DNA from: an uncultured Gammaproteobacteria bacterium
Lineage (GTDB): Bacteria > Patescibacteriota > Microgenomatia > JALYQM01
DNA length: 64,000 nt
Direction of reading: 5' to 3'
NCBI GenBank assembly: GCA_964403585.1
Contig: CAYOFQ010000001.1
Span: 648,630-712,629, forward strand
In this document: positions 6,340-49,427 of the stretch, in pieces
Layout of the letters: each line of letters begins with the position of its first letter
How positions within the stretch are numbered: the stretch's first letter is position 1
Notes under the pieces: generated by a model
What the model was told of the DNA's origin: nothing
Seen by the model: only the letters and a program-made list of their open reading frames with translations
Databases searched by the model: none
Position numbers and translations under genes: made by a program

Positions 6340-6488
6340 CTGCAATAAGCATTCCCACTGCAGAAAATTCATTTTTCGAACAAACTTTTATCCTTTTATT
6401 TTTCCCCGCAAAAATCATACAATAATCATAAGTTCCATTAAAATTATTCAAGCGTAGAGCTGGATTTAGTTTAAAGGAAGCCATAAAT

Positions 6489-9400
6489 ATGGGTGACTTT
6501 GTTCATTTGCATGTCCACACCGAATACTCCTTACTCGACGGACTCTCCAAAATTAAAGATGCCATCAAACACATTAAAAAGCATGGCATGGATGCCCTGG
6601 CCATTACGGATCATGGTTCAATGTTTGGAGTAGTTGATTTTTATAAAGCCTGTTTAAAGGAAGAAATTAAACCGATCATTGGGGTAGAAACGTACGTGGC
6701 CCGTCGTGCCCATAATCTCAAGGAAGGCCGCCAGGATGCTGAACCGTATCACCTCTTGTTGCTCGCCAAGAATTACACCGGATATAAGAACCTGATGAAA
6801 ATGATTTCCATTGCGCATATTGAAGGGTATTACTATCGTCCTCGTGTGGACAAAGCCTTACTCCGGGAATTTCATGAAGGTATTATTGCAACCTCCGCAT
6901 GTCTGGCCAATGACATCGCGCGTGCGCACATCGCGGGCAACTACGACGAAGCCAAGCGCATTGCGCTGGAGTATCAGGAGATTTTCGGTGAGGGAAACTT
7001 TTTCTTGGAAATCCAGCGGCACCACTACCGTGAGTACCTAAAGGAACATACTCCCGGCGATGAAATTTATCAGGATCTCTCGGATACTCAAATTAAAGAA
7101 GATGCCGTGTACAACGGCAATATCCGCCTTTCCCGCGAGACCGGTATCCCTCTTGTATGCACCAACGACTGTCACTATGTGAACCAGGACGATGCTGAAG
7201 CACAGGATTGTCTCATTTGTATTGGTACCGGTAAACAAATGGCCGAGACCACTAAACGGTTGCGTATGGTCGATGCCCGGGCGTACTACCTGGCTACGCC
7301 GGACGAAATGAAAGAATGGTTCAAGGAAGTACCGGAAGCCCTGGAAAATACGGTCAAGATTGCCGAGATGTGTAATCTGGAAATCCCGATTGGCAAATCA
7401 CAATTTCCGATCTTTGAAATTCCCGAAGGGTATACTCCCGACGAATATCTCCGCCACCTCACCTATGAGGGAGCCAAAACCCGACTGGATCTCAATGATC
7501 CGGTTGTTGTGCAGCGGCTAGATTATGAACTGGAAGTTATCAAAATCAAAGGCTATCCGACGTATTTCATGATCGTTGCTGATTTTATGAACTGGGCAAG
7601 CAATAACGGCATCATTACCAATACCCGTGGCTCAGCTGCCGGATCGCTGGTTTCATATGCCATGGGTATCACTTCAGTTAACCCGCTTACCTACAACTTA
7701 CCATTTGAACGATTCCTTAATCCACTTCGTCCATCCACACCGGATATTGATGCCGACATGTCCGACATTCATCGTGACGATCTTATCAACTATGTGAAGG
7801 ATCGCTATGGCCACGATCGGGTCGCGCAGATCGGAACGTTTGGTAAGTTAATGGCCCGTGCTGCAGTTCGTGACGTTGCACGTACCTTAGGAATTCCAAT
7901 CAGCAAAGCCGATAAAATTGCTAAAATGGTTCCGGAGGGATCCCAGGGGTTTGCGATGACACTCACGCGTGCCCTCAACGAATCACCCGAACTGAAACAG
8001 TGGTATGACAGCGACTCGGAAGTCCGCAAAATAATCGATCTGGCAAAAAAAGTTGAAGGAAATGTCCGCAATCCGTCAGTCCATGCAGCCGGCGTCGTTG
8101 TTTCACCGGGACCGATGACCGACTTTACCCCGTTGCGAATAGACGACGGCAAGATAATTACCCAGTATGATATGCACGGCGTTGAAGACGTGGGGCTGGT
8201 AAAGTTCGACTTTCTTGGAATCCGTAACTTGTCTATCCTGGGACTTGCGGTAAAAATGGTGAAGCAGGAAAAAGATATTGAAATTGATCTGCACAAAATT
8301 CCGCTCGACGATCAAAAAACGTTTGATCTTCTTGCCAACGGGCAAACCATGGGGTTGTTCCAGTTAGGCGGATCGGGTATGACCAAATGGCTGGTCGAAC
8401 TCAAGCCCTCCCGTATTGATGATCTCATGGCTATGGTTGCGCTTTTCCGTCCGGGACCAATGGCGATTATCCCCGAATACATTAACCGCCGGTTCCACCC
8501 CGAAGCAGTGACTTACTTTGATCCCCGCATGGAATCATTTCTGAAAATGACCTACGGTCTGATTACCTATCAGGACGACGTTCTGATGTGTGCCATTAAC
8601 ATGGCCGGATACGACTGGCTTGAAGCAGACAAGTTCCGCAAAGCTATGGGTAAAAAAATTCCCGAGGAGATGGCCAAGCAGAAAGAGAAATTTCTCAAAG
8701 GGTATGTCGAATATGGCAAGGATTACGGCGTTACCGATCAAAAAGCCCAGGACCTATGGAAATTGATTGAGCCATTCTCAGCTTACGGATTCAATAAAGC
8801 ACACGCGGCCAGTTACGGTATTGTGGCGTATCAAACAGCTTATATGAAAGCCAACTTTCCGGTTGAGTTTATGATGGCCGTTATGACCTGCGAAGCCGGA
8901 AACATGGAAACCATTACCGAAGCCGTTGCCGAGTGTAAAAACATGGGAATTGAAGTGCTGCCGCCCGATGTTAACAAGTCCGGGATCGGCTTTACCATTG
9001 AAAACAGCAAAGACATCCGTTTTGGATTAAACGCTATTAAAAATGTCGGTGAGGCCGCGGTCGAGGCTATTATCAGGGGCCGCGACGCGCATGGTGATTT
9101 TACCTCTCTATATGACTTTTGTCGTAATGTCGATTTACGTCCGGTTAACAAAAAAACCATCGAATGTTTAATTAAAACCGGTGCCATGGACGCGTATGGT
9201 ACCCGCTCAGCACAATTATCTGTCCTGGAACAAATTATGCAGGCAGCCGGCGCCGAACAAAAAAGCAAAGAATCCGGTCAGTCATCATTATTTGAAATTT
9301 TAGCGGCCGAAGCCACCGAAGACGATCCGAATGCCGGTAATACCGAAATTCCCGTACCTAATTTACCGGAAATCAATAAGAAGGAATTACTGGGGTGGGA

Positions 9401-20284: not shown

Positions 20285-22798
20285 TCACTCATTGCTACCT
20301 ATTAACTGGAGTTCTTTCCACACCAGCTGGTGAGATTCTTTACCTGCCGGATTAATTGAAATTTGCTGCGTTAATTCTCTCCAGCGGGAGTGCATCTCCA
20401 GTGGATGCGCGTACTGTTCGGCATTGGCATCAGTCATCTCTTCCGTGTAATGTATAGTTCTGCGACCCGTCGATTCAATGAGAATATTTTGCTTCTCAAA
20501 CATGCGATATGTGTTTTGAAAATTAATTACCGGCTCAGTCAGATACGCATACTCTTTAATCAAATCCCACAACACATCATTCACCGCTTCGGAAGTTTCC
20601 ACTACCGGCAGTCCTAAATTTTTTGCTTCAAAGTATACAATCGGATAATCGCTCGAAGGATAACTTTGAGTCAGTGTTTGAACAATCTGTGCTATTTGAG
20701 CATCGGTTCCAGGTGTTTTTCTCAGCTTTAAAAGATTGGTACAAATCCGTTGAACTAATGACAACTGTCGGTTTGCAGCTGCAGTAACTAACGGATGGAA
20801 TGTTTCAGGATCCTGGTTTACCACAGCAGTTGAGGCTTCTTTTTGTCTTGCCGTTGATTTAGACGGCAGCGGGTTTGATGCCTGGAAAATTTCGTTGAGC
20901 GGCACCGCTACTGATTCCTGGTCAAACGATTTGCTGAGCAATTTATGCGAGAACCAGGTGTCAACAGGTGAAAGAAATCCGAACGGATTCATAAGTATCG
21001 AATCACCCGATAACGCCATCATTGTTGTCGCAACCGAAGATTCTTCAGGTAAAATTACCGTCAACTCGTCACAAAACTCGCGAACCAATGTCGCCATTCT
21101 CCAGATAACAGTGCTGTCCGCATCCTGAATAATTGGCAACAAGTAGAGCGATTTCTTTTTTCCTAACTTTCGCAAGTGGCTATAGAGATAGCGCATATCC
21201 TCCATGGATACATAGGTATTGGCCGCATAATACACGAGAACTTTTCCGTGCAGAGATTCTTCCAGGCGTTCAATCGATTCCTGTGTTCGCTCCCAGGCAA
21301 CCGGAGGTTTGCGCGGCGGAAGTGACCCGCTTTGATTTTGAGTCTTTGCTTGTGGACGTTCGGCACGTTGTTCAGGGGCTGGGAGGCGCTGCTCGCGTTC
21401 TTGCTGACGTTGGTCCCGGTCCGGCTGGCGTTGCTCCCGTTCAGGTCGTTGTTCACGCTCCGGCGGACGCTGTTCGCGGTCTGCTCGTTGTTCACGATCT
21501 GCCTGCCGAGGCGGACGTTCTGATTGAGGCATCTCTTTTGGTGCTTCCGGTGTCGTAATATCATTCTCAAAGCGGGGCTCTTCCTGCCGTGCTCGTGGCG
21601 GTTCAGTCTGTATTTTTGGCGCGGGGGGTGCCACCGTTTTTTGTTCAGCACGAGGCATCTGTTCACGCTGTTTAGGCTGCTCAGGTTGCCGTGCAGGTTG
21701 TTGTTGCGACTGCTGCTTTGGTGCTGGCTGTTCCGCCAGCTGGGGAGCTGCTTGAGCCTTCGACTCTTTTTTGGGAGCTGCTGCTACCGGCGGTGCTGGT
21801 GGTTTCGACTGCTGCTGTTGTTGTTTTGGTTGTTGAGGTACCTGCTCAGGCGGCCGCTGCTGCTGTTGCTGAGGGGCTTTTGGCTGTTGCGTCTGCTGCT
21901 TCGGCTGCGGGGGTTGCTGGGGCTGTCGTGCCGGTGCGGGTTGGGGAACCGGTGGCATTTGCTGTGCAGGTTGATTTTGATTAAACGCAGCTTGAAGCGG
22001 CGGAATTGCCGGAGGGCGGCCCGGTGCCTGACCAGGCTGCATCTGTGCATTAAGTGGCGGCAATGACGGTACGCGCTGCGGTTCAGTAGCCTGCGGCATG
22101 GATGGCATCGTTAATGGCGGTAGTACGGGTGATTTATCGGCGACAGTACCGGAAGGGTCATCAAACTGTAAACCGCTGCTCTTCAGCAGATCGTCCAGAC
22201 TCGGTAACTCAAAGGGCACATTTTGCGGATTGGCCTGCTGTCCCTGGTTACTGAAAGGAAGCGGCGGAATCTGACTCTGCTGCGGTACCGGGTTTTCAAC
22301 AGGGGGACGTCCAGGTGGTTGGTTAGGCATAGGCGCTTGACGCTGCGGAGCTGCAGGCTGAGGTGCCGGCATTGGGGCCGGTGCCTCCGGAGCCGGTGCA
22401 GTTCCGTTTGTATAACTTTCCCAGGCTAAATCAGTGATTCTTTTGTAAATCAGGTCAAAGGGCGCTTTTCGCATCTCTCCTTTAAGCCGCTGATAGCTGG
22501 TCATCGTTACCGTATTGTTGCCCATCGCGTCAACGATACTCAAGGTAACATCGGGCACATTGGGAGACGATCCTGAATCATGAACAATATTCGGCAGCTG
22601 AAAAAAACCGACTTCCCTGGCATATTGCAGGACTTCGATAACTTTCTGTCGCTCAATCTGCCGTTCGACGATATCTGTATCAGACTCAAAAATGAGCATT
22701 CGCCCATTGTCGTAAATTTCAACATCCCCGGCACGGGAGTTTGGCGGCAACATACCACCACTCATTTTTACTAGAATAGCTAGATTTGAAACAGGCAT
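20285..22798 (-). CDS. Large (837 aa) protein: N-terminal globular region, very long P/Q/A-rich disordered segment with REQR/DREQR repeats, and a C-terminal ClpP/SDH-like (serine peptidase fold) domain
   Basis: Long, clean ORF. Low-complexity PQ-rich core (…PQPAPARQPQQPPQPKQQTQQPKAPQQQQQRPP…) and tandem DREQRADREQRPPEREQRPEREQRQPDRDQRQQEREQR. C-terminal region KVLVYYAANTYV…LPEESSVATTMMALSGDSILMNPFGFLSPVD resembles the SDH/ClpP-class serine peptidase fold. Confidence 0.7.
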   Translation of the reverse strand: MPVSNLAILVKMSGGMLPPNSRAGDVEIYDNGRMLIFESDTDIVERQIERQKVIEVLQYAREVGFFQLPNIVHDSGSSPNVPDVTLSIVDAMGNNTVTMTSYQRLKGEMRKAPFDLIYKRITDLAWESYTNGTAPAPEAPAPMPAPQPAAPQRQAPMPNQPPGRPPVENPVPQQSQIPPLPFSNQGQQANPQNVPFELPSLDDLLKSSGLQFDDPSGTVADKSPVLPPLTMPSMPQATEPQRVPSLPPLNAQMQPGQAPGRPPAIPPLQAAFNQNQPAQQMPPVPQPAPARQPQQPPQPKQQTQQPKAPQQQQQRPPEQVPQQPKQQQQQSKPPAPPVAAAPKKESKAQAAPQLAEQPAPKQQSQQQPARQPEQPKQREQMPRAEQKTVAPPAPKIQTEPPRARQEEPRFENDITTPEAPKEMPQSERPPRQADREQRADREQRPPEREQRPEREQRQPDRDQRQQEREQRLPAPEQRAERPQAKTQNQSGSLPPRKPPVAWERTQESIERLEESLHGKVLVYYAANTYVSMEDMRYLYSHLRKLGKKKSLYLLPIIQDADSTVIWRMATLVREFCDELTVILPEESSVATTMMALSGDSILMNPFGFLSPVDTWFSHKLLSKSFDQESVAVPLNEIFQASNPLPSKSTARQKEASTAVVNQDPETFHPLVTAAANRQLSLVQRICTNLLKLRKTPGTDAQIAQIVQTLTQSYPSSDYPIVYFEAKNLGLPVVETSEAVNDVLWDLIKEYAYLTEPVINFQNTYRMFEKQNILIESTGRRTIHYTEEMTDANAEQYAHPLEMHSRWRELTQQISINPAGKESHQLVWKELQLIGSNE

Positions 22799-22884: not shown

Positions 22885-22956
22885 GGGTCGGTAGCTCAAC
22901 GGTAGAGCAGCAGCCTTTTAAGCTGTTGGTTCTGGGTTCGAATCCCAGCCGACCCA
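22885..22956 (+). tRNA. tRNA-Lys (anticodon TTT)
   Basis: Acceptor GGGTCGG/CCGACCC, D-arm GCTC-AACGGTA-GAGC, anticodon stem GCAGC/GCTGT with loop CTTTTAA, T-arm CTGGG-TTCGAAT-CCCAG. No encoded CCA. Confidence 0.85.
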
Positions 22957-29806: not shown

Positions 29807-30424
29807 CTATTGATACTTACGGATCACACCAACAACTTTACCTTGAATTTGAACATCGGTTGCATAGATAGGTTGCATGGTACTGTTGGCCGGTTCAAGA
29901 CGAATACGGTTTGGCTCTTTGTAAAATCGTTTTAATGTAGCTAATCCGTTTTCAAGCAAAGCTACAACTATTTCACCGTTGCGGGCTGTCTCCTGACGCT
30001 CAATAATAACGAAATCGCCATCTAAAATCCCGTCTTCAATCATCGACTCGCCTTTAACTTGCAGTACATAAGTCGGCTTTTTACCTGAAATCATTCCTGA
30101 ACTGACTGTCATTGCTGCGTTCGGGTCGGTAAATGTAGCAATCGGCTGACCAGCGGCAATGTACCCGAGAATCGGTAACTCTACGCCTTCCAGCATATTG
30201 CCCATCTTTTTTTCCAGAACCTCAATCCCGCGCACCATACCTTCGTATTTCCTGATTAATTTTTTCTTCGTCAATGCCTGTAAATGTTCGTGAACAGTGG
30301 CCAACGACTTTACATTGATCGCATCGGCAATTTCCTGCAAGGTAGGAGAGTAGCCATTCTTCTGAATATATTGTGAAATAAAATCTAATATCTGACGCTG
30401 CTTTCGGTATACTATAACGGGCAT
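29807..30424 (-). CDS. lexA: LexA repressor (S24 peptidase)
   Basis: N-terminal winged HTH (ILDFISQYIQKNGYSPTLQEIADAINVKSLATVHEHLQALTKKKLI) and C-terminal S24 autoprotease domain with GESM Ser and KR Lys. Confidence 0.9.
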   Translation of the reverse strand: MPVIVYRKQRQILDFISQYIQKNGYSPTLQEIADAINVKSLATVHEHLQALTKKKLIRKYEGMVRGIEVLEKKMGNMLEGVELPILGYIAAGQPIATFTDPNAAMTVSSGMISGKKPTYVLQVKGESMIEDGILDGDFVIIERQETARNGEIVVALLENGLATLKRFYKEPNRIRLEPANSTMQPIYATDVQIQGKVVGVIRKYQ

Positions 30425-30488
30425 GGTATCCTCCTGCTTTAAACTAATGTATAAAAGTAATTTTTTCTCTTTTCGGTATATCCCTATT

Positions 30489-30509
30489 AAACCCGAAAGC
30501 TTCGGGTTT
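30489..30509. promoter_or_regulatory. Palindromic hairpin AAACCCGAA-agc-TTCGGGTTT in the lexA / LPXTG-gene divergent intergenic region (candidate operator or orphan terminator)
   Basis: Perfect 9-bp inverted repeat with a 3-nt loop, followed by TTTTG. Located about 65 nt upstream of the lexA start (divergent orientation). Confidence 0.45.
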
Positions 30510-30671: not shown

Positions 30672-31121
30672 ATGAGAATCGCAGCTGGCGTTATCGGTGT
30701 ACTTTTATTATTAGCGATAATATACTTTTTTCTTCCGGCAGGAGTTAAGAGAGTCGTTAATCCATTCTATCGTCCAACAACAACTGCTGTTCGAACCTCT
30801 CCATCTCCGTCCGCAGGTGTTACGATCACCCCTCCGGTAGGATCAGCAGCTCCCGACGCGTTTGTTAATGCTACAGGGACACCACGTCCGTCAGGATCGG
30901 TACTTGCTCAGGCTACCGGTACTGCTCGTGCTACCGCCACACCACGGGCTTCAACGACCGTTGATCCATTTGCATCCGCTTCACCAAGCGGGACCCAGAT
31001 CGCGTCCGCTAATTTACCGGGCACCGGTGATGAAGAACGCAATCCTGAACTACTCGTAATCCAGCTCTTAGCCAGTATACTGGTTATAATGTTCGGGTAT
31101 AAACTGAGTAGACATCTTTAA
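30672..31121 (+). CDS. LPXTG-type cell-surface protein (sortase-substrate-like sorting signal)
   Basis: N-terminal signal/TM (MRIAAGVIGVLLLLAIIYFF) and a T/P/S/A-rich mature region. The C-terminus is LPGTG, then hydrophobic LLVIQLLASILVIMFGY, then basic KLSRHL, which is the classic sorting-signal architecture. The track start at 30660 is GTG. Confidence 0.7.
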   Translation: MRIAAGVIGVLLLLAIIYFFLPAGVKRVVNPFYRPTTTAVRTSPSPSAGVTITPPVGSAAPDAFVNATGTPRPSGSVLAQATGTARATATPRASTTVDPFASASPSGTQIASANLPGTGDEERNPELLVIQLLASILVIMFGYKLSRHL

Positions 31122-31265
31122 TATACTACTTCAAAGCCGCTAAAAATTTAATCAAATATTCTATCGGGAAAAATCATGTATGAGTAATCCAGTGGGATAC
31201 AAATTGTATATTAATACAAAGTGTACCCCACCGGGTCTCATCAGCTATGACGATTTGCGAAAAAA

Positions 31266-31949
31266 CTAGGAAGCGGTAGGGGTACAGCCGGCTGCTAATG
31301 CCGTTAATAAGGCTTGTTCGGCTTCGTTTTCAGCTGCAAGAAGAGCTTCTGCTGCATTATCAGCCTTTGCCCCAGCGGCGGCAGCTCCGGCTTTGGCATT
31401 ATTAAGCGCAGCAACCGCGTTTTCATGCGCCAACTTAGTCGCGTTAACTTCTGCCTGAAGCAACGTGATTAGCCCTTCGTCACCTGGTCTCGGATAACGA
31501 TCAATTCGCCTCAAGGCAGATGCCAATCGATCCTGGGCACCCTGATAATTTGCCCAAGCTAAGTCAACAGCAACGACTGCTTGGCGCACCCTTTCATCTG
31601 CAAGGAGACTGTCTGACTCAGCAGCATTGTACGCAGCTTCAGCGGCAGTTTTAGCAGATTCAGCTTGTTTCCAATCTGCAATCAGTTGCTCGCACTGGGT
31701 TGGCGCAACAACAGGCGCGGGCACAGGTTCGGGTAGAGCGGGTTGTCCAGGCTCAGGGGCAGGCGCAGATTCAGGCTCCTGAGGTTTTGCTTCGTCATTC
31801 GAGGAAGCCGGGCTGCCGTCGTAATTCACGACACATACTCCAGGCCCCGCCCAGACTTGACAAGATGACGAAGGCCGAGCGTACACACTCCCCGGTAGAT
31901 TTAATAATCCACCGAGGGCCAGGATCAAAGCTGCATATCGCAGTCCCAT
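31266..31949 (-). CDS. Secreted Ala-rich coiled-coil-like protein (hypothetical); locally elevated GC
   Basis: Signal peptide MGLRYAALILALGGLLNLPGSVYA, a P/E-rich linker and an Ala-rich, heptad-like C-terminal half. Sampled GC is about 55%, above the roughly 45% baseline. Confidence 0.6.
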   Translation of the reverse strand: MGLRYAALILALGGLLNLPGSVYARPSSSCQVWAGPGVCVVNYDGSPASSNDEAKPQEPESAPAPEPGQPALPEPVPAPVVAPTQCEQLIADWKQAESAKTAAEAAYNAAESDSLLADERVRQAVVAVDLAWANYQGAQDRLASALRRIDRYPRPGDEGLITLLQAEVNATKLAHENAVAALNNAKAGAAAAGAKADNAAEALLAAENEAEQALLTALAAGCTPTAS

Positions 31950-32253
31950 GATCCCCTCCTTGAAATAAGGTTGATAAAAGGCGACAGTGTAGTGTTAGGA
32001 CGAATAAGATCACTTAAATTTGAGCTCGATACTTAAAGAGAGCTTATTTATCCCAACAATACAAGTCGTTTAATTTCGCAATTGTCAAAGAACTGATGAT
32101 AAAAAGAACTAATCAACTGCCAAAGTAAGGCTAAATCACCCTACACTGAGAATTGATAAGGGTAAACTGTAGCATGAAATAGTTGAAAAGCCAATATTAT
32201 AGGCTTATTAGTGTGCCGTTGACAGCTATTAAAGGATCCTTAATCATAGAGAT

Positions 32254-33612
32254 ATGAAATCTGCTATTACTTCTTTATCCTTAGTTATTATTTTTCTGGC
32301 TGTCTCTATAGTCAGCATCCAATCTAATAATTTACCTCTAGAGCAAGACGTAGCCGGTGCGGCAGGATACTCGGCATCTACGTCAGATTGCAGAACATTT
32401 ACAATAAATGTTCCAACTCCAGGAGGAGACACTTCAATCGCAACGCAGTACTATTTAGACGCACGGGATATAAATGCAAAATTTTCTATTTACACCTCAC
32501 CTCCGTTTGAATTCAAAGATAATTCGGGGAACTTGCTCTTGAAAAAAGATGTAACACTAATCGGGAGGTTAATCCCGGCAACTTGGAATATATCTATTAA
32601 ACGGGTTATCAATAGGACTGTTCTCGCAACTATCAGTAATGTAACGTGTTCATTCCCGACCTCATTTCTTTTTACTGCGGTAGGCGACAGTGGTGCAAGT
32701 GCGAATGCAGCCAATGTTTTTAAAGGAATAGGTAAAGTCCGTCCTAATTTTTCAGTCCATCTTGGAGATATGGGATATGGAGAGATTTTACCCGAAAGCG
32801 AATGGGCAAAATTTGTAAACAATAATATTGACACAGGCGCAGGAACACAACTTTCTGCAAGCTTACCGTATATGCTGATTGCGGGTAATCATGAGTCAGG
32901 AGGAGAAAGCCCGGGTGGAGGGCTCATTGAAAATTATGCCACGTATTTAACTAACCGTGATGTGCCTATCTCAGGTACGTATTCTAAACAATACTATTTT
33001 GATTATCCTTCTTATTCTACATCAGTGACGGGACAAAAGTTGGCCCGCTTCATTGAAATTTCACCCGGGATTACATTTTCTAATGGAGGATTATTTACGT
33101 ACACAACAGGGACATCACGGTATAACTGGGTAAGTTCCACTATTGATCAGGCAAGAACTGCAGGCATTCCCTGGGTAATTGTAAGTACGCATAAAAACTG
33201 CATTACTATGGGAAAAAAAAGATGTGAAATCTCAGCTGACCTAATGAACTTGTTGATATCTAAAAGAGTTGACCTCGTATTGCAGGGACACGAGCACGAT
33301 TACCAGCGCAGTAAGCAATTAAGATTATCGTCAAGTTGCGTAGCGGTGCCAATTAATCTATATCAATCAAATTGTGTGGTTGATGATGGCAGTGACAAAC
33401 TATATACCAAAAATGCAGGTACAATCTTTGTTGTAGCTGGCACAGGTGGCAGGAATTTAGACCTTTTAAACACCGCGGATTCCGAGGCAGGTTACTTCGC
33501 AGCCACAAGTTCGCAATATGGATTTCTTAAAGTTAATGGAACTGCAACTTCTCTAAATGTATCCCAACTATCTGCTTCAGGAAGTACGATAGACTCATTT
33601 TCAATCAGGTAA
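32254..33612 (+). CDS. Secreted calcineurin-like metallophosphoesterase (purple-acid-phosphatase-like)
   Basis: Signal peptide plus the metallophosphoesterase motifs GDMGYGE, AGNHE and GHEHDYQR in canonical order. Strongly AT-rich gene (about 30-35% GC sampled). Confidence 0.75.
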   Translation: MKSAITSLSLVIIFLAVSIVSIQSNNLPLEQDVAGAAGYSASTSDCRTFTINVPTPGGDTSIATQYYLDARDINAKFSIYTSPPFEFKDNSGNLLLKKDVTLIGRLIPATWNISIKRVINRTVLATISNVTCSFPTSFLFTAVGDSGASANAANVFKGIGKVRPNFSVHLGDMGYGEILPESEWAKFVNNNIDTGAGTQLSASLPYMLIAGNHESGGESPGGGLIENYATYLTNRDVPISGTYSKQYYFDYPSYSTSVTGQKLARFIEISPGITFSNGGLFTYTTGTSRYNWVSSTIDQARTAGIPWVIVSTHKNCITMGKKRCEISADLMNLLISKRVDLVLQGHEHDYQRSKQLRLSSSCVAVPINLYQSNCVVDDGSDKLYTKNAGTIFVVAGTGGRNLDLLNTADSEAGYFAATSSQYGFLKVNGTATSLNVSQLSASGSTIDSFSIR

Positions 33613-33625
33613 ATAATACACTAAT

Positions 33626-34306
33626 CTAATTGAAAGGTTTCTTAATAACAGTAATAAGTTGAAATAACCATCCAATTGATACGACGCCGATCATATTCGT
33701 GATCAGAGATATATAACTTTCGCGAAGTTCCGGATTGGCATCAATATACCCAAGCAATCCTACCCCGGCAAACAGAGGAACTAACATTAGTATTAGAATT
33801 ACTCCAATTGGCAGATGTAGTTTATTGCCGACAAAACTTATCCCACTCATTCCCATCGTTAAAAGAAACAGCAACAGCGGTATCAAAAAAAACTCACTGA
33901 CTAATCGATAGTATTCGGGAGCGATAAAAAGGAGCGCGGTGAGTTCTGAACGATATTCACTAAACAGAAATGATTCCAGGTACACACTCAGCGCGAATGA
34001 GATCCAGAAAAACTTATACGGATAAGAAAATAACCAAGACAATAAGGTACCTTCTTTCACAGAAATTAGCTGACGCTTTTTTGGTATCGAGATTTTTTTA
34101 GGAAGTAATTGATGCAGAGAAAAAGGCACAAGTATTGCTAGGATAATTGGAAGAAAGAGGATAAAACCAGGCAACTCACCGGTGTAAAAATGAACCATGC
34201 TCCGCACGACAACAAGCACTGCAAAACCGGTCAAGGCAAAGTCAATAAATGATGTCACATATTCATCCCAATAGCCTAAATAACGTGCATACGGTTGCGG
34301 TTCCAT
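33626..34306 (-). CDS. Integral membrane protein (hypothetical, about 6 TM)
   Basis: Multiple hydrophobic helices. AT-rich like its neighbour. No motif recognised. Confidence 0.55.
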   Translation of the reverse strand: MEPQPYARYLGYWDEYVTSFIDFALTGFAVLVVVRSMVHFYTGELPGFILFLPIILAILVPFSLHQLLPKKISIPKKRQLISVKEGTLLSWLFSYPYKFFWISFALSVYLESFLFSEYRSELTALLFIAPEYYRLVSEFFLIPLLLFLLTMGMSGISFVGNKLHLPIGVILILMLVPLFAGVGLLGYIDANPELRESYISLITNMIGVVSIGWLFQLITVIKKPFN

Positions 34307-34542
34307 ACTCCTATGGTAACAAAAGCAGAAAAATAAACCAGGCAGCGAATTTTGCGACAGTTTACAATGATAGTATAATATTCCCGCTCAATTATTTTAG
34401 CGCTTCACTTTCTCAATGAGAGGAATCTGAGGAAAATAATAATTCGGCAATGCTAGTACGTTGAAAATTAATCGTCACTTGGGTTGCAGAAAAATGAACA
34501 TGAATTGTCGTGTTCAGAAACTGCAACTCAGGAGGCAACAGA

Positions 34543-35367
34543 ATGGGTAGACGAATTCGGAAAGTCCCAGGCCTGGTATGGCTGGCACTGATCGCGCTGC
34601 TGCTGGCGTCGTGTGAGGGAAGTCCCCTCACGTCGGAGCCGACAGCCCAACCGGCCATCGCAGTCACCGGCATCACCGCGGCACCGAGCCCAACCACGCC
34701 GCCAACGGACGCGCCAACGGCCACAACTGCCCCGAGCCCAACGCCGCTGCCACCCAGCCCGACCGCAACACTGACGGTAACACTACTACCGACGGGCACA
34801 CCCATCCCAGTTGAGCTGCCGACATTGATTCCTGCCACCGCGTCTCCAAACACGGTGATTCTTGGCGGCACGTTTGAGGCCGGTACATCCCAAGGCTGGC
34901 TGACATCCTCGCCCGATGTAACGAATGCCATTGGCACTACCGACGAGCACCACACTGGTGCTGGCGCACTGCAGATCAACGTCAGGGCCGGCCAAAAGGC
35001 AACCTTCATCTCTACCTGGATCGATACGGGGCGGAACTTGCCGGAGGGGGTTGATTCTCTTGGCCCTCGGGATCTGAACAACGCGCCGATGGAGGCGTGG
35101 GTGAAGGTCACCTTCGCTAGCGACAAGAAGGTAGCCATTCGCGCCTTCGCGCGCGATACTACCGGTGCCAATAACCTCGGCGAAATGGAATGGGTGAGCA
35201 GTGGTGAATGGCACAAAGTTGAACTCCTGATTGGCAGCGGCCAACAGGATAGCGGGTTTAACCCTAGGAATGTCACCGCGTTTGGCGTCATGCTCGACAG
35301 CTATGAGTATGAACTCGGAGAAGGTGACCATCTCTACATCGACGACTTGAAGATCATCGACGACTAG
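34543..35367 (+). CDS. GC-rich putative lipoprotein with T/P-rich linker and C-terminal beta-sandwich (CBM-like) domain
   Basis: Lipobox LIALLLASC and a long TTPPTDAPTATTAPSPTPLPPSPT linker. The C-terminal domain (GGTFEAGTSQGW...YIDDLKIIDD) resembles carbohydrate-binding/jelly-roll modules. Sampled GC is about 63% versus about 45% background. The overlapping minus-strand ORFs are judged to be GC artefacts. Confidence 0.65.
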   Translation: MGRRIRKVPGLVWLALIALLLASCEGSPLTSEPTAQPAIAVTGITAAPSPTTPPTDAPTATTAPSPTPLPPSPTATLTVTLLPTGTPIPVELPTLIPATASPNTVILGGTFEAGTSQGWLTSSPDVTNAIGTTDEHHTGAGALQINVRAGQKATFISTWIDTGRNLPEGVDSLGPRDLNNAPMEAWVKVTFASDKKVAIRAFARDTTGANNLGEMEWVSSGEWHKVELLIGSGQQDSGFNPRNVTAFGVMLDSYEYELGEGDHLYIDDLKIIDD

Positions 35368-35439
35368 CATCGCATAAAGTAAATCAACGCAAAACAGCGA
35401 CTGAGCTGGTGAGCAAATACACGCAACTTTATGCCTATC

Positions 35440-35472
35440 GGTAGGTGTCACTTGAAAGGGTAGACACCTACC
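35440..35472 (+). terminator. Hairpin (perfect 10-bp stem GGTAGGTGTC / GACACCTACC, 13-nt loop) downstream of the GC-rich lipoprotein gene
   Basis: Inverted repeat read directly from the sequence. The downstream T-tract is weak (ctcacttatattctt), so terminator function is tentative. Confidence 0.45.
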
Positions 35473-35557
35473 CTCACTTATATTCTTAAATAATTGAGGA
35501 TATAAATGAGGGAGTCTTGCACTAGTATTTGATGGAAGAAAAACGCATACTAATGGT

Positions 35558-35722: not shown

Positions 35723-35812
35723 GCATTATGAAGGTATCCACGCTCATTACATCCAAGAATATCTAACATCTGTGGTGTGGACTTTCGGTTTTTATTGGGT
35801 TACAATAGAAAG

Positions 35813-37813
35813 ATGGACGAAAATACATTTCATCTTGAATCTGAGTTCAAACCAACAGGCGACCAGCCGCTGGCGATTGAAAAATTGACTAAAGGAGTTC
35901 TCGCTGGAGACAAAAATCAAACATTGTTAGGTGTTACCGGAAGTGGAAAAACATTCTCAATTGCGAACGTAATTCAGCAGGTTCAAAAGCCAACCCTGGT
36001 AATCTCTCATAACAAAACGCTGGCTGCACAACTGTATCAGGAATTCCGAGACTTTTTTCCGAAGAATGCTGTAGAGTATTTTGTTTCGTACTACGACTAT
36101 TATCAGCCGGAGGCCTATGTCCCGCAAACCGATACTTATATTGAAAAAGAAACCGAAATCAACGAAGAAATAGATAAACTTCGTCTTTCTGCCACAACGT
36201 CATTACTAACCCGTAGAGATGTAATTGTCGTTGCATCAGTCTCGTGTATCTATAACATCGGTTCACCAAAAGAATATCAGGAAGCCATTCTTACTGCGCA
36301 TGTCGGGCAATTTACCAACATGGATTTAGCCATGAAGGTGCTTTCCCGCATGTCGTATGTTCGCAATGATTTCGAGTTTCAACGCGGCATGTACCGCCGC
36401 AGAGGTGATACGCTGGATGTGTATCCGTCCTACACCGACTATTTTGTCCGTATCGAATTTCTCGGTGACCAAATCGACCGGATCAGTCAAATTGATCCGA
36501 TGAGTGGCGAAATATTGGACCGGCCAAAAATGATTTCAGTATATCCGGCTAAACACTATGTTACTCCACTGGATAAAATGCAGTCGGCAATCGAAGAAAT
36601 CCGTCGGGATCTCGAAATACGCGTTGAACAGCTGAAAGCCGAAGGGAAAACAATGGAGGCCTACCGCCTTAACCAGCGTACGAATTATGATCTGGAGATT
36701 ATTCAGGAAATCGGTTACTGCAACGGTATCGAAAACTATTCCCGCTATTTTGACGGCCGTCCTCCGGGAGCCGCGCCAAATTCGTTACTTGAATTCTTTC
36801 CCAAGGATTATCTCCTGGTTATCGATGAATCGCACATTACCATCCCGCAGATTCGCGGCATGTACAACGGCGACCAGGCACGTAAGAAGACGCTTGTCGA
36901 TTTCGGTTTCCGCTTACCGGCAGCCATGGATAACCGCCCACTCAAATTTGATGAATTTTTACGCCGGATTAATCAGACCATCTATGTATCTGCAACACCG
37001 AATGAGTATGAACTAAGTCTTTCTGATCAGGTCGTCGAACAACTTATCCGGCCAACCGGTATTGTTGACCCGGAAATAGAAGTACGACCAACCGAAGGTC
37101 AAATCAAAGACTTAATGAATGAAATTATTATTCGGGCTGAACGCAAAGAAAAGGTACTCGTTACAACCTTAACTAAGCGCATGTCCGAAGATCTCACGAC
37201 CTTCCTAACTGAGAAAAAAGTAAAAGTAGCTTATTTGCACTCCGAAGTCGAAACATTAGACCGAAGCGACATTCTGGATGATCTCCGCCGGGGAACCTAT
37301 GACGTGGTCGTCGGGGTAAACCTGCTTCGTGAGGGTCTCGATTTGCCCGAAGTCTCGCTGGTCGCGATTCTTGACGCCGACAAGGAAGGATTTTTACGCT
37401 CACATACATCACTAGTCCAAACCATGGGGCGTGCCGCCCGCCATATTAACGGTAGGGTTATTATGTATGCCGATACCATGACCAAGTCAATGAAATCTTC
37501 AATTGATGAAGTTAACCGCCGGCGCGAAGTGCAATTGGCATACAATCAGGAACACAATATTACGCCTCAACAGATTTCCAAAAAAATTCGTGAAAAGCTG
37601 ATCGACCGGATAGTCGAGGAGGAACCTGAGAAGGTCAAAGAGAATCGAGCAGAGGCTGTATATAACCAGGCGATAGCCGGTGAGTTAATACCACAGGACA
37701 AAACCAAGCTCGTAACCTATCTGACAAAGAAGATGAAGGAAGCTGCTAAAGAGTTTCGGTTTGAAGAAGCAGCGGTAATTCGGGATAAAATAGCCAAGCT
37801 CAGGGATCAGTAA
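35813..37813 (+). CDS. uvrB: Excinuclease ABC subunit B
   Basis: Helicase motifs (GVTGSGKT), a beta-hairpin region and a C-terminal UvrB/UvrC interaction motif (EFRFEEAAVIRDKI). The track start at 35777 is upstream; the first ATG giving the canonical N-terminus is at 35813. Confidence 0.93.
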   Translation: MDENTFHLESEFKPTGDQPLAIEKLTKGVLAGDKNQTLLGVTGSGKTFSIANVIQQVQKPTLVISHNKTLAAQLYQEFRDFFPKNAVEYFVSYYDYYQPEAYVPQTDTYIEKETEINEEIDKLRLSATTSLLTRRDVIVVASVSCIYNIGSPKEYQEAILTAHVGQFTNMDLAMKVLSRMSYVRNDFEFQRGMYRRRGDTLDVYPSYTDYFVRIEFLGDQIDRISQIDPMSGEILDRPKMISVYPAKHYVTPLDKMQSAIEEIRRDLEIRVEQLKAEGKTMEAYRLNQRTNYDLEIIQEIGYCNGIENYSRYFDGRPPGAAPNSLLEFFPKDYLLVIDESHITIPQIRGMYNGDQARKKTLVDFGFRLPAAMDNRPLKFDEFLRRINQTIYVSATPNEYELSLSDQVVEQLIRPTGIVDPEIEVRPTEGQIKDLMNEIIIRAERKEKVLVTTLTKRMSEDLTTFLTEKKVKVAYLHSEVETLDRSDILDDLRRGTYDVVVGVNLLREGLDLPEVSLVAILDADKEGFLRSHTSLVQTMGRAARHINGRVIMYADTMTKSMKSSIDEVNRRREVQLAYNQEHNITPQQISKKIREKLIDRIVEEEPEKVKENRAEAVYNQAIAGELIPQDKTKLVTYLTKKMKEAAKEFRFEEAAVIRDKIAKLRDQ

Positions 37814-37820
37814 TACCTGA

Positions 37821-38789
37821 CTACTGCACCATAAATATTCTCAAAATATCGTTTGACGCATTTGTATGCTTATGCGGAGCGCCGCCTGAAGCTTCCGGAA
37901 AGGCGGCATCACCAGTATCATACTGTGCAGTCATATCGGTTCCACATCCTGAAACAATCGAGGGCTTCCCTCCGGAATGAAACTTAATATAGTCGGTAAT
38001 GTTATAGAGGTGTCGTCCGTCGGTTTTATCGGTATAGACGACGTAGCAATCAGTTTCCCTATTGTGAAGCTTCGCAATCTCAAGCAGTGGGTCAGGTGTC
38101 GGCGTTGGTACCGGCGTAGGGCTTGGGGTGCGAGTCGGAGTAGGGGAGGGAGTTGGTGATACTTCCGGGCCGGGTACAATCGCAACAATATACATTGAGT
38201 AGGCCGCAGCCTGAGCATCGGAAGCTGCTCCAAAAGTAATAGTCCCTGCAGGTGCTGTCCTGGAATAAAAATCGTAAATACCAATCAATCCGAGCTCATT
38301 TTTCCGTTTTGCGTACTGATTAATATGTGAAAGATCATCGTTGGTCGAGCGCGAATAGCCGTTTTTTATCCAATTGGGTACCTGATTAATACTCGGGATG
38401 TGCCGGGTAAGAATATAGACTGTCGATTGGACTGCTGTCGTTACCGACCAACTCAACGTGGTCGAATCTTTTATTTCGGAATTGGGTGTCAATACAAAGG
38501 CAGCGTTATTAATTGACTGGTCAGGCAGGAAGAAAAGAAAGCGGCTATCCGTAGAATACATTTGAACATTATTCTCAATACAGCCTTTGTTGAATGTGTA
38601 CCCGGCAGGACTGTTTATTGAAAAAAATGAGGTTGAACATCCAATCTGAGCATCGGTGTCGTCGGTATGGTTAAGTTCAGATTTGGTTATCCTTGTTGAG
38701 GCGTAGACTCCAAAAGTCAGGATACTCCCAACCAGCACTACCACGAGTAACTCGTTCATATAAGCATTTTTCATTTTCATCGGTTGCAT
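37821..38789 (-). CDS. Secreted/TM-anchored hypothetical protein; paralog of 18226-19809, with a C-terminal cytochrome-b5-like segment
   Basis: The N-terminal 200 aa align with ORF 18226-19809 (WSVTTAVQSTVYILTRHI...NWIKNGYSRSTNDDLSHINQYAKRKNELGLIGIYDFYSR...YSMYIVAIVPGPE), followed by a TPSPTPTRTPSPTPVPTPTPDP linker. The C-terminus LEIAKLHNRETDCYVVYTDKTDGRHLYNITDYIKFHSGG resembles the cytochrome b5 heme-binding motif (...HPGG). Confidence 0.7.
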   Translation of the reverse strand: MQPMKMKNAYMNELLVVVLVGSILTFGVYASTRITKSELNHTDDTDAQIGCSTSFFSINSPAGYTFNKGCIENNVQMYSTDSRFLFFLPDQSINNAAFVLTPNSEIKDSTTLSWSVTTAVQSTVYILTRHIPSINQVPNWIKNGYSRSTNDDLSHINQYAKRKNELGLIGIYDFYSRTAPAGTITFGAASDAQAAAYSMYIVAIVPGPEVSPTPSPTPTRTPSPTPVPTPTPDPLLEIAKLHNRETDCYVVYTDKTDGRHLYNITDYIKFHSGGKPSIVSGCGTDMTAQYDTGDAAFPEASGGAPHKHTNASNDILRIFMVQ

Positions 38790-45367: not shown

Positions 45368-45796
45368 GTGACATCTATGAAACATATCATCCGCAACATC
45401 TTAATCGCCGTCGGCACCATCTACCTCTTAACCTACCTCAATGGCGGCTTCACCTATTCCGGCGACTACCGTACCCTCTTCCTGGCCGGATTTGTGATGT
45501 TCTTTCTGGATACTATTGTCGAACCCATACTCAATATCATCTTTATACCTATTAATTTTCTCACTGCCGGCATATTTAAATGGGTGGTGGCAGTTGGACT
45601 GTTTTATGCGCTGGTTTATTTCGTCCCTGCAGTACACATCAGTCAGTGGACCTTTCCCGGCTATTCGCTGGTTGTTCCGCGACTGAACACCGTTCAGATC
45701 CCGTCATATACCTTCGCTTTTTGGCCGAACCTCGTACTGCTTTCCTTCACCTATAACTTCATTGCCGGGCTCCTTAAATGGCTCTGCAGCGACTAG
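45368..45796 (+). CDS. Small 4-TM membrane protein (phage-holin-4-like family, hypothetical)
   Basis: 142 aa with four hydrophobic helices. Preceded by a 190-nt structured leader. Confidence 0.55.
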   Translation: MTSMKHIIRNILIAVGTIYLLTYLNGGFTYSGDYRTLFLAGFVMFFLDTIVEPILNIIFIPINFLTAGIFKWVVAVGLFYALVYFVPAVHISQWTFPGYSLVVPRLNTVQIPSYTFAFWPNLVLLSFTYNFIAGLLKWLCSD

Positions 45797-47499: not shown

Positions 47500-48169
47500 T
47501 TAATCGAGCACTTTTACGCTTTTGTTCCTTTAATTTTTGTTTGTGCTCATATCCGTGGAGAACATAATCAATCAGCCCGTATTTTATCGCCTCATCGGCT
47601 GACATCCAATAGTCCTTTTTCAGATCTTCCTCTATTTTTGATAACGGTTGTCCGGTTCGTTTACTCATAACTTCATAGAGAATTCCCTGCAGAATGCGTG
47701 TCTCCTGTATGCGAATATCCAAATCCGAAACGGTTCCTTTCACTGAATTGGAAACTTCGTGAAGCAGAATACGGGTATGCTCATAACAATACCGCTTACC
47801 GGGTGTGCCTGAAGCCAACAACACCGCACCTGACGAAGCACAGACACCGATACCAATAGTCCAAACATCACAGGCAAGATTATCAATACAGTCGATAATT
47901 GCCAGGAGATCAATAACACTACCACCGTATGAATTGATATACAGAAATATATCCTTTTCCGGATTCTCCTCTTCTAAAGCGAGTAGATTCGAAATTGCCA
48001 ACTGTGAAGTTTTGGCGTCAAATTCTTTGAATAAATAAATGTTTCTGGAACGCTGCTCAATATCACTATCCATTTTTCCCAGAAAATCCCCCGATGGAGA
48101 TGAATCGGGTTCATCTCCATCATAGTTATAACCATGTTTAAAGAAGGGGGATGTTTTTATCATATGCAA
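47477..48169 (-). CDS. clpP: ClpP-family serine protease subunit with N-terminal extension and Lys-rich C-terminal tail
   Basis: ClpP core (IFLYINSYGGSVIDLLAIIDCIDNLACDVWTIGIGVCASSGAVLLASGTPGKRYCYEHTRILLHEV) with Ser and His in the expected places. There is an N-terminal extension of about 35 aa (start uncertain; alternative ATG at 48073) and a C-terminal KQKLKEQKRKSARLTTGKKAA tail. No clpX is adjacent. Confidence 0.8.
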   Translation of the reverse strand: MHMIKTSPFFKHGYNYDGDEPDSSPSGDFLGKMDSDIEQRSRNIYLFKEFDAKTSQLAISNLLALEEENPEKDIFLYINSYGGSVIDLLAIIDCIDNLACDVWTIGIGVCASSGAVLLASGTPGKRYCYEHTRILLHEVSNSVKGTVSDLDIRIQETRILQGILYEVMSKRTGQPLSKIEEDLKKDYWMSADEAIKYGLIDYVLHGYEHKQKLKEQKRKSARLTTGKKAA

Positions 48170-48211
48170 TTAACTAAGCTGTAACATTATTGTATACACT
48201 AACTATATAGT

Positions 48212-48349
48212 TTAGCGAGCATTTTGTCTAGCTCTATTCTGTGCATATTTTTCTGCGCGGGCGCGACCACCGCTGCGTGCAACTCGTTTTCTTGTTTCAT
48301 CATCCGCGTAATAAAGTCCACGTGGTTTAGACTTTTGACTTCGTGCCAT
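48212..48349 (-). CDS. Small basic protein (45 aa), unannotated in the ORF track
   Basis: Perfect SD (AGGAGGcaactATG) on the minus strand. Encodes MARSQKSKPRGLYYADDETRKRVARSGGRARAEKYAQNRARQNAR. Arg-rich and reminiscent of small stress-induced (KGG-like) proteins, but family is not established. Confidence 0.45.
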   Translation of the reverse strand: MARSQKSKPRGLYYADDETRKRVARSGGRARAEKYAQNRARQNAR

Positions 48350-48502
48350 AGTTGCCTCCTAAAGTTATATCAAACATATAATAATAATATATATTAATAA
48401 TATCATAAAATATTGTCTTTTTCAACCCGAAAAATGCGAAAAAAGTAAGCATTTTTATCAGAAATCACGTGTGATATAATCATTAGCGAACACAAACTAT
48501 CC

Positions 48503-48575
48503 GCCTTCGTAGCTTAATGGATAGAGCAGCTGGCTTCGAACCAGCCGGTTGGGGGTTCGAGTCCCTCCGAAGGCA
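48503..48575 (+). tRNA. tRNA-Arg (anticodon TCG)
   Basis: Acceptor GCCTTCG/CGAAGGC, anticodon stem GCTGG/CCAGC with loop CTTCGAA, T-arm GGGGG-TTCGAGT-CCCTC. An extended -10 TGTGATATAAT lies about 25 nt upstream. No encoded CCA. Confidence 0.85.
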
Positions 48576-48713
48576 CGTCATTACTTCTTATATTTTTCTC
48601 AACTAATTTTCAGTCCGCTCTTGCTATTACAGCTATTTTTTTGTTAAAATATGCATATAATGATATAACATTATCATTAATTAATAGTAACAATACAATT
48701 TAAGGGAGGTGTT

Positions 48714-49427
48714 ATGTACACACTTAATACAACTCAGGCCATACTTAACAATGCCTTGCTGCGGTTTACGAACTACATGCCTCAGTTCATTGCAGGACTG
48801 ATATTACTCATTATCGGATTCATTGTCGCAGCGGTTGCCCGAAGTATCGCGTTACGTGTACTAAAAATATTCCGGATAGATCGCTGGATCAACAGTGCTG
48901 AGGAAATTTTCAAAAAGGCTGAAAATGCTGATACAAAGACCGCTGGCCTTTGGCCTGGAATATTAGCTCAGTTACTGTATCTGACTATTTTGGTGCTCTT
49001 CCTGATGCCTGCCTTTGATGCCTGGGGTTTAAATCGTGTTACTCAGATATTAAATCAGTTCATTTTATTCTTACCTAATATCTTTATCGCAGTGGTAGTA
49101 GGTTTTATTGGTTTGGGATTAGCTCGTCTGGTATCAGACATAGTTGAGCGCACGACATCAGATTTAGGCAGTAGCTCATCTCGTGTTCTTGCCAATATTG
49201 CCCGATATTCACTGGTATTCTTTACCGCATTAATTGTACTTAACCAGCTCGGAGTAGCAGCTAATTTAGTGCAAATTCTCTTCACCGGAATCGTTGCGAT
49301 GCTCGCAATCGCCGGAGGTTTAGCTTTTGGTATCGGTGGTCAGGATAAAGCGCGCCAGTTGCTCGACAGCTTAACACAGAAGGTCCAGGAAACCCGCCAG
49401 GTACGCGGAAACCGTACTAACGGATAA
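48714..49427 (+). CDS. Integral membrane protein (hypothetical, about 5 TM)
   Basis: 237 aa with repeated hydrophobic helices and a C-terminal polar tail. No motif recognised. Confidence 0.55.
   Translation: MYTLNTTQAILNNALLRFTNYMPQFIAGLILLIIGFIVAAVARSIALRVLKIFRIDRWINSAEEIFKKAENADTKTAGLWPGILAQLLYLTILVLFLMPAFDAWGLNRVTQILNQFILFLPNIFIAVVVGFIGLGLARLVSDIVERTTSDLGSSSSRVLANIARYSLVFFTALIVLNQLGVAANLVQILFTGIVAMLAIAGGLAFGIGGQDKARQLLDSLTQKVQETRQVRGNRTNG

Follow-up and report, generated by a model that had tools for sequence, protein, structure and literature searches.

Genomic islands and horizontal gene transfer (HGT) have been documented as common in Patescibacteria (PMC12455944). Here we describe the interval between the genes lexA and uvrB in a stretch of 64,000 nt (contig CAYOFQ010000001.1 of assembly GCA_964403585.1, positions 648,630 to 712,629), referred to below as the window. 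The interval holds five genes for envelope or secreted proteins, g0 to g4, each of them separately transcribed and lying in mixed orientation. Similar to small genomic islets, or accessory slots, between core genes, it is variable in presence and partly atypical in composition, contains ORFans, is enriched in surface and secreted functions, and has conserved core flanks. In contrast to classical genomic islands, it has no integrase, tRNA target, or direct repeats, measures only about 5 kb, and consists of independent single-gene units of mixed orientation, while a part of its atypical GC content is an amino-acid effect. It is an ordinary integrase-free accessory islet of envelope and secreted proteins, of a kind already documented in Patescibacteria, and leaves current views unchanged, since islands and HGT are already known in this group (PMC12455944). 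The only mildly unusual point is a rare and apparently mobile family of lipoproteins with a domain resembling carbohydrate-binding modules (CBMs), whose position upstream of uvrB is conserved and whose sequence is extremely diverged.

The original prediction had described the region as a mosaic of blocks with about 55%, 30–35%, and 63% GC that coincide with gene boundaries, and had taken this pattern to suggest serial horizontal acquisition. We explain the interval as a variable accessory-gene slot in which the GC mosaic has three different causes and is only partly due to gene transfer; we assign this reading a probability of roughly 0.65. According to it, g1 would be GC-rich solely through its Ala/Pro-rich protein, its synonymous sites being native; g0–g3 would have in common a mild synonymous shift towards AT, as is usual for accessory genes, strongest in g2; and g4 would be an allele imported or replaced from a higher-GC donor, at a position where a member of its family was already present. 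The main genes of the locus are as follows.

29807–30424, minus strand: lexA, the left conserved flank (Pfam LexA_DNA_bind and Peptidase_S24)
30672–31121, plus strand: g0, small Ala/Thr/Pro-rich protein with transmembrane (TM)-like segments at both ends
31266–31949, minus strand: g1, Ala-rich secreted ORFan, 54.7% GC (about +2.5 standard deviations, SD)
32254–33612, plus strand: g2, predicted secreted metallophosphoesterase resembling purple acid phosphatases (PAPs), with AT-shifted codon usage, 40.5% GC
33626–34306, minus strand: g3, polytopic membrane protein with five TM-like segments, 39.1% GC
34543–35367, plus strand: g4, lipoprotein with a lipobox-containing signal peptide, a Pro/Thr-rich linker, and a CBM-like C-terminal beta-sandwich
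35813–37813, plus strand: uvrB, the right conserved flank, with the probable start at ATG 35813 and not at GTG 35777

Domain, TM, and fold evidence agrees with the descriptions of g1–g4 given in the original prediction.

The lexA–uvrB interval in related genomes

A scan of GTDB representative genomes with UvrB returned distant relatives only (at most 65% identity), the best named one being a Gottesmanbacteria metagenome-assembled genome (MAG) in which lexA and uvrB stand back to back. A metagenome scan with LexA produced 80 loci, including one close relative, L083; another, L164, was taken from a contig encoding a g4 homologue. Both lexA and uvrB are present in 34 loci, one of which is the window's own Logan contig. 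Among these 34, 11 relatives have the two genes divergent and 27–170 bp apart. In the remaining two-gene loci, either the gap contains unrelated inserts of 0.45–6.2 kb or uvrB is placed differently with respect to lexA; among the inserted genes are metabolic ones, a 1966-aa open reading frame (ORF), genes for polytopic membrane proteins, and a UDP-glucose dehydrogenase-like gene. This directly observed synteny suggests that the adjacency of lexA and uvrB is probably ancestral and that the gap has been filled more than once, with different content.

The two closest relatives are particularly informative. L083, with LexA 94% identical to that of the window, is collinear with it and has lexA, a g0 homologue, and uvrB only. 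In L164, where UvrB is 92% identical (76.6% at the DNA level), g0 is followed by a 265-aa gene (P0124) and then by uvrB. Thus, g1–g3 are absent from both relatives, and g4 is absent from L083. Because of the former absence, the more parsimonious reading is that the window's lineage gained about 3.2 kb, and we infer that g1–g3 most likely entered it after the split from the closest sampled relatives rather than being lost from the latter. Since a g4 family member occupies the equivalent position upstream of uvrB in L164, g4 probably did not arrive in an empty site. Gene g0, whose start at 30672 was taken from the gene call in the Logan assembly L081, has homologues at the equivalent position in L164 (57–63% identity) and L083 (33–38%), and hence reads as an older resident of the slot.

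These comparisons bear on the opposite explanation as well, namely that no transfer occurred at all: the slot genes would be old residents that evolve fast in place and were lost by relatives, their GC content being set by amino acids, expression level, or local mutation bias. Indeed, g0 (33–63% identity) and the g4 domain (26%) are conserved in position yet very divergent, next to UvrB at 92%. On the other hand, this explanation needs repeated losses, as g1–g3 are missing in both close relatives and lexA and uvrB are adjacent in many distant ones. We regard it as improbable; further evidence on it comes from g4, discussed below.

The mechanically called ORF of uvrB starts at GTG 35777. The alignment with UvrB of L164 starts at residue 13 of this long ORF, the alignments with UvrB of other relatives also begin at ATG 35813, and a conserved promoter-like 28-mer falls inside the extension; for these reasons the gene probably starts at 35813.

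Adjacent genes of L083 and the window have diverged to very different degrees: compared with the 94% identity of LexA, the neighbouring iPGM is 59% identical and g0, as said, 33–38%.

Base composition of the slot genes

GC content at third codon positions (GC3) is more diagnostic of HGT than total GC, and accessory genes as well as ORFans are often AT-rich. We split the GC content of each gene by codon position (GC1, GC2, GC3) and compared its observed GC with the value expected when its own amino-acid sequence is encoded with the window codon usage (z-scores below), the 64-kb window being the only background for all composition tests. The window has 44.6% GC (600-nt windows: mean 0.446, SD 0.041), and its ORFs have a mean GC3 of 0.447 (SD 0.062).

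The mosaic itself is real, and the compositional steps in the slot fall on gene boundaries. A sliding window does not yield uniform GC: g1 has 54.7%, g4 has 60% with 300-nt peaks of 64%, and the best 600-nt window in the g4 block, at 0.628, is the top of the entire window (+4.4 SD). The AT-rich block, in contrast, had been placed too low, as g2 and g3 have 39–40.5% GC and not 30–35%. In 300-nt windows this block (32254–34306) has 36–41% GC, about 1–1.4 SD under the mean, and DNA of lower GC content is found elsewhere in the window, e.g., at 47851–48950 (about 35%).

The codon positions of g1 have GC contents of 0.69, 0.54, and 0.41 (GC1, GC2, and GC3, respectively), and its observed GC, 0.549, is below the expected 0.576 (z = –2.4). 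Given this low GC3 and the observed value being less than expected, the GC excess of g1 comes entirely from Ala/Pro codons and is not a foreign signature; the synonymous sites are native. The protein contains 24% Ala, a signal-like N-terminal segment, and a PAPEP-type linker. It has no family match in Pfam or NCBIfam, and in a word-indexed search of 5.8 billion proteins it matched itself alone.

Gene g3, without a match in Pfam, NCBIfam, or PHROGs, looks native-like in composition: its observed GC is 0.391 against the expected 0.416 (z = –2.1), its GC3 is 0.38, its dinucleotide signature is nearer to that of the window than the signature of any sampled segment of the same length, and its tetranucleotide correlation with the window is at the typical 44th percentile.

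The two other genes have anomalous synonymous sites. In g2, the observed GC of 0.406 against the expected 0.457 gives z = –6.3, the window minimum, with GC3 of 0.325 and A-rich fourfold sites (0.40 vs. 0.24 in the background); this is a genuine synonymous shift towards AT. In g4, the observed GC of 0.601 against 0.531 gives z = +6.7, the window maximum. Its GC3 is 0.67 and stays at 0.57–0.75 over the full gene, globular domain included. About half of the excess GC in g4 is due to amino-acid composition and half to synonymous choice. At fourfold sites the frequencies of C and G are both 0.34 (background 0.27 and 0.23, respectively); at twofold sites C/(C+T) is 0.59 (vs. 0.38) and G/(G+A) is 0.56 (vs. 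0.36). Hence g4 has a genuine synonymous shift towards GC and a foreign-looking codon usage. Its tetranucleotide correlation with the window is at the 1.0th percentile and that of g2 at the 2.4th, so that the tetranucleotide test finds these two genes atypical and g3 not.

Translational selection was considered as a cause of the high GC3 of g4 and ruled out, because its G-ending codons are raised as much as the C-ending ones.

The increase of both G- and C-ending codons sets g4 apart from the other high-GC3 genes of the window, which raise C only, and this argues against an origin of the g4 composition without transfer, although about half of the excess is amino-acid-based (expected 0.531 vs. 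background 0.446). Compared with the usual pattern of HGT followed by amelioration, g0–g3 show the common AT shift of accessory genes, and g4 shows a third-position shift as for a recent import; it differs from this pattern in being GC-richer than the host, which is the less common direction, and in being located at a site with a homologue in a relative.

Serial acquisition in the strict sense, with each of the three blocks imported from a donor of matching GC content (about 55, 35, and 63%), would be in line with the blocks tracking gene boundaries, with the lack of g1–g3 in the closest relatives, and with the synonymous sites of g2 and g4 being anomalous in opposite directions. For g1 it is already refuted, as amino acids fully explain the GC content and the GC3 of 0.41 is at or under the native level. 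Further, g3 is native in composition, the position of g4 is occupied by a homologue in L164, no donors were identified, and a GC peak elsewhere in the window (21051–22650) has a similar amino-acid-driven origin. We therefore hold it to be unlikely as a general explanation, while its core idea survives in a narrower form: the slot does gain genes, g1–g3 are missing from close relatives, and the composition of g2 and g4 is anomalous, so that HGT may lie behind these two anomalies.

Methodologically, total GC in short samples over-calls foreign DNA for proteins rich in Ala, Pro, Thr, and Gly, and the split by codon position together with synteny in relatives sorts such cases.

The GC peak at 21051–22650 just mentioned is the window's other 55% peak. 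It lies within the gene of an 837-aa protein (20285–22798, minus strand), whose C-terminus weakly matches an SDH-type Clp-like protease and which contains a low-complexity region of about 400 aa rich in Pro, Gln, Arg, and Glu. The GC3 there is about 0.45, and the peak is thus driven by amino-acid composition, like that of g1. Another deviating gene, at 45368–45796 (plus strand), encodes a 142-aa hydrophobic protein; its GC3 of 0.615 comes from C-ending codons alone, a bias unlike that of g4 in kind.

The g4 lipoprotein and its family

Bacterial lipoprotein signals consist of a positively charged N-region, a hydrophobic core, and a lipobox [LVI][ASTVI][GAS]C. The N-terminus of the 274-aa g4 protein, MGRRIRKVPGLVWLALIALLLASC, reads in translation as such a signal (RRIRK...LLASC) with the lipobox LLASC. 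The gene is framed by the following elements.

34352–34379, plus strand: promoter-like site (TTGCGA, 16 nt, TATAAT), a consensus match only
34529–34534, plus strand: AGGAGG Shine-Dalgarno sequence, read in the sequence
35440–35472, plus strand: hairpin 3' of g4, a likely terminator (minimum free energy –20.6 kcal/mol, z = –3.9; terminator-like site)

The C-terminal domain comprises 170 aa. Its single-sequence AlphaFold model is poor, with a predicted local distance difference test score (pLDDT) of 52, and the model was therefore built from an alignment of nine sequences, i.e., the g4 domain and eight homologues. The resulting beta-sandwich has a pLDDT of 81.9 and a predicted template modelling score (pTM) of 0.80. 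Foldseek matched it in PDB to CBM22 (4xup, E = 5e-8, TM-score 0.60–0.67), CBM16, CBM4, and the CBM of an alkaline mannanase (1wky). At the sequence level no Pfam model detects g4 itself, not even at E <= 1; Mann_GBD_bact (PF21253) is matched by 6 of the 9 aligned proteins (best E = 5e-12), g4 not being among them, so that this link is transitive. The CBM-like character of the g4 domain is thus supported at the fold level, by a predicted model. The closest known modules are the beta-sandwich CBMs of the galactose-binding-domain-like superfamily (CBM22, CBM16, CBM4, CBM11; PF21253); the model superposes with CBM22, CBM16, CBM4, and the mannanase CBM at TM-scores of 0.5–0.65 and a Foldseek probability of 1.0. 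Unlike in these systems, the module of g4 is not joined to a glycoside hydrolase, its only partners being the lipid anchor and the Pro/Thr linker.

The possibility that the GC-rich segment is an artefact, i.e., an assembly chimera, a contaminant, or a structured RNA, was suggested by the three long overlapping ORFs in it and by the word-indexed search of 5.8 billion proteins, in which g4 matched only itself. We consider it very improbable. Two Logan assemblies from separate runs, L081 (SRR16481186) and L082 (SRR16481187), match the window at 100% identity over the g3/g4/uvrB junctions; the gene has the promoter-like site, Shine-Dalgarno sequence, lipoprotein signal peptide, and terminator hairpin listed above; GC3 > GC1 > GC2 in the frame of the globular domain; remote homologues yield the confident beta-sandwich model; and the region contains no Rfam RNA family even at E <= 1.

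Both L081 and L082 stop at window position 36734, inside uvrB, which may mark a strain-variable or assembly-breaking point.

The family of g4 is small. An exhaustive phmmer search with the g4 domain over 1.84 billion representative proteins found only 9 remote homologues (E from 1e-10 to 1e-3), and a hidden Markov model (HMM) of the family, run on every ORF in the window and in 166 loci, added no further members. Most of the homologues examined are built like g4: a membrane or lipid anchor at the N-terminus is connected by a low-complexity linker to the C-terminal domain. P0124, the homologue directly upstream of uvrB in L164, shares only 26% identity with g4 in the domain and is thus no nearer to it than the other family members. 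The genes of the family often deviate in composition from their surroundings.

L163: g4-family gene with 57.9% GC against flanks of 44–45%, its third-position profile being almost identical to that of g4
L164: g4-family gene with 48% GC against 39% in uvrB
L168: g4-family gene P0131 with 41% GC inside flanks of 61%, beside an IS3-type transposase

Because of this mismatch we read the family as moving between genomes; it is rare, patchily distributed, and apparently mobile. The deviation from host GC in both directions and the member beside a transposase are difficult to reconcile with fast evolution in place as the sole cause. Thus, an imported or replaced allele is probably the better description of g4; a new insertion and purely vertical descent both fit less well.

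A bolder version of this interpretation is also possible, though we put it forward only tentatively: the site upstream of uvrB could be a diversifying surface-protein locus, where lineages that differ in GC content exchange entire alleles of CBM-like lipoproteins via recombination in the conserved g0 and uvrB flanks (xenologous allele replacement). Such swapping would jointly explain the conserved position, the 26% domain identity beside UvrB at 92%, and the foreign-looking codons. If so, the locus could determine attachment to a host or substrate in a putatively episymbiotic bacterium of the candidate phyla radiation (CPR), and, more generally in Microgenomates, the space separating the divergent promoters of lexA and uvrB would be a hot spot where insertions recur without an integrase. 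In any case, the analysis points to a small, apparently mobile, and undescribed family of anchored CBM-like proteins.

In L168, the region 6094–9161 of a 2.08-Mb contig (GCA_964269775.1) contains the gene of P0131 (386 aa) next to an IS3-type transposase pair. By its composition, this gene has the appearance of a clear island, here in a larger genome unrelated to the window. In two more distant relatives, small ORFs of 140–146 aa for a lipoprotein or anchored protein directly precede uvrB on its own strand (L003, 9572–9994; L004, 9525–9965); neither scored against the g4-family HMM.

The g2 phosphoesterase

The sequence motifs of PAPs are five blocks, GDxG, GDxxY, GNH(D/E), VxxH, and GHxH, which carry seven metal ligands. 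All five occur in the g2 translation, as VGDSG, LGDMGY, AGNHES, VSTH, and QGHEH. The protein matches the Pfam family Metallophos (PF00149) with E = 5.3e-13 and 50.3 bits (cut-off 21.5), and its best solved relatives in PDB are purple acid phosphatases (E = 1e-5). By domain and motifs, g2 is predicted to be a PAP-like phosphoesterase. It shares the Metallophos domain, the five motif blocks, and a signal peptide with PAPs of the PF00149 superfamily (PDB 1xzw, 4dhl, 1kbp), and differs from the solved ones in its low identity to them (E = 1e-5) and in about 130 N-terminal residues without a detectable family. The nearest homologues are 43–48% identical over 70% of the length of g2; those named by source are from Chloroflexi, Roizmanbacteria, and Actinobacteria. 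The closest homologues often contain additional PKD, Ig, or CBM-type domains, which g2 does not have.

Promoter elements, boundaries, and mobility markers

The slot is bounded by two promoter-like elements, and a further structured element separates its first two genes.

30482–30497, minus strand: 16-nt motif TTCGGGTTTAATAGGG, within a TTGACA...TTTAAT promoter-like site upstream of lexA
31180–31241, strand not applicable: hairpin between the convergent g0 and g1, a likely bidirectional terminator
35779–35806, plus strand: conserved 28-mer upstream of uvrB, with the second copy of the 16-nt motif (35784–35799) and a TACAAT –10-like hexamer

The pattern TTCGGKTTTWATWKGG, drawn partly from both sites, has exactly two matches in the 64-kb window, at 30482–30497 (minus strand) and 35784–35799 (plus strand). 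Each copy lies in the spacer of a promoter-like site, and the block g0–g4 is situated exactly between these two outward-facing copies. Many relatives carry related motifs ahead of lexA, and all 28 bases of the 28-mer at uvrB are identical in L164. The window contains no LexA box of the Cheo type (GAAC-N4-GTTC). We propose the 16-nt motif as a candidate SOS operator in this lineage, and we read its two copies as putative promoter/operator elements of lexA and uvrB themselves and not as attachment sites. Insertion would in that case have taken place between the two promoter elements and left both of them intact, and the mechanism would be recombination without a dedicated mobile element.

The hairpin between g0 and g1 is supported by the fold of 31125–31265 on the minus strand (minimum free energy –39.6 kcal/mol, z = –4.1).

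The original prediction stated that no integrase, transposase, or tRNA sits at the boundaries, and this holds. Pfam, NCBIfam, and PHROGs show no integrase, transposase, conjugation, or phage domains in g0–g4 or in g5, the gene downstream of uvrB; there is no tRNA between 22.9 and 48.5 kb, the nearest being at 22885 and 48503. The same absences, together with several other facts, weigh against the slot reading. A search for flanking repeats gave short, chance-level pairs only. No donor was found for any slot gene. When the intergenic DNA of L164 is aligned locally with that of the window, the scores are no better than for shuffled sequence, and at such divergence breakpoints are not mappable. 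The preference for gain over loss is parsimony from only two close relatives, both of them short contigs, and it is chiefly the g0 identities that support the topology ((window, L164), L083). In principle, g4 could be a vertically inherited, very fast-evolving gene with a GC content of some other cause. Finally, the assignment of the host to CPR derives from the best-matching genomes. Even so, the variable accessory-gene slot remains our preferred reading.

A 14-nt inverted pair, AT-rich, flanks g4 (34387–34400 and 35485–35498). No relatives of g1 or g3 were found on viral contigs.

The host genome is small, with a source contig of 1.57 Mb, and probably CPR/Microgenomates-like, judging by its best-matching genomes, namely the Gottesmanbacteria MAG and contigs of about 1 Mb. 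The lexA–uvrB interval is thus one more documented integrase-free slot in a small, probably CPR genome, in which lineage-specific envelope proteins accumulate: the PAP-like phosphatase, the CBM-like lipoprotein, and the ORFans.

The neighbouring gap between uvrB and uvrA is also variable. In the window it holds g5 (37821–38789, minus strand), whose product combines a TM anchor and a Pro/Thr linker with a cytochrome b5-like domain at the C-terminus (Pfam E = 2e-7). The corresponding gap in L164 contains an unrelated secreted ORF of 136 aa, and in several relatives uvrB and uvrA are nearly adjacent.

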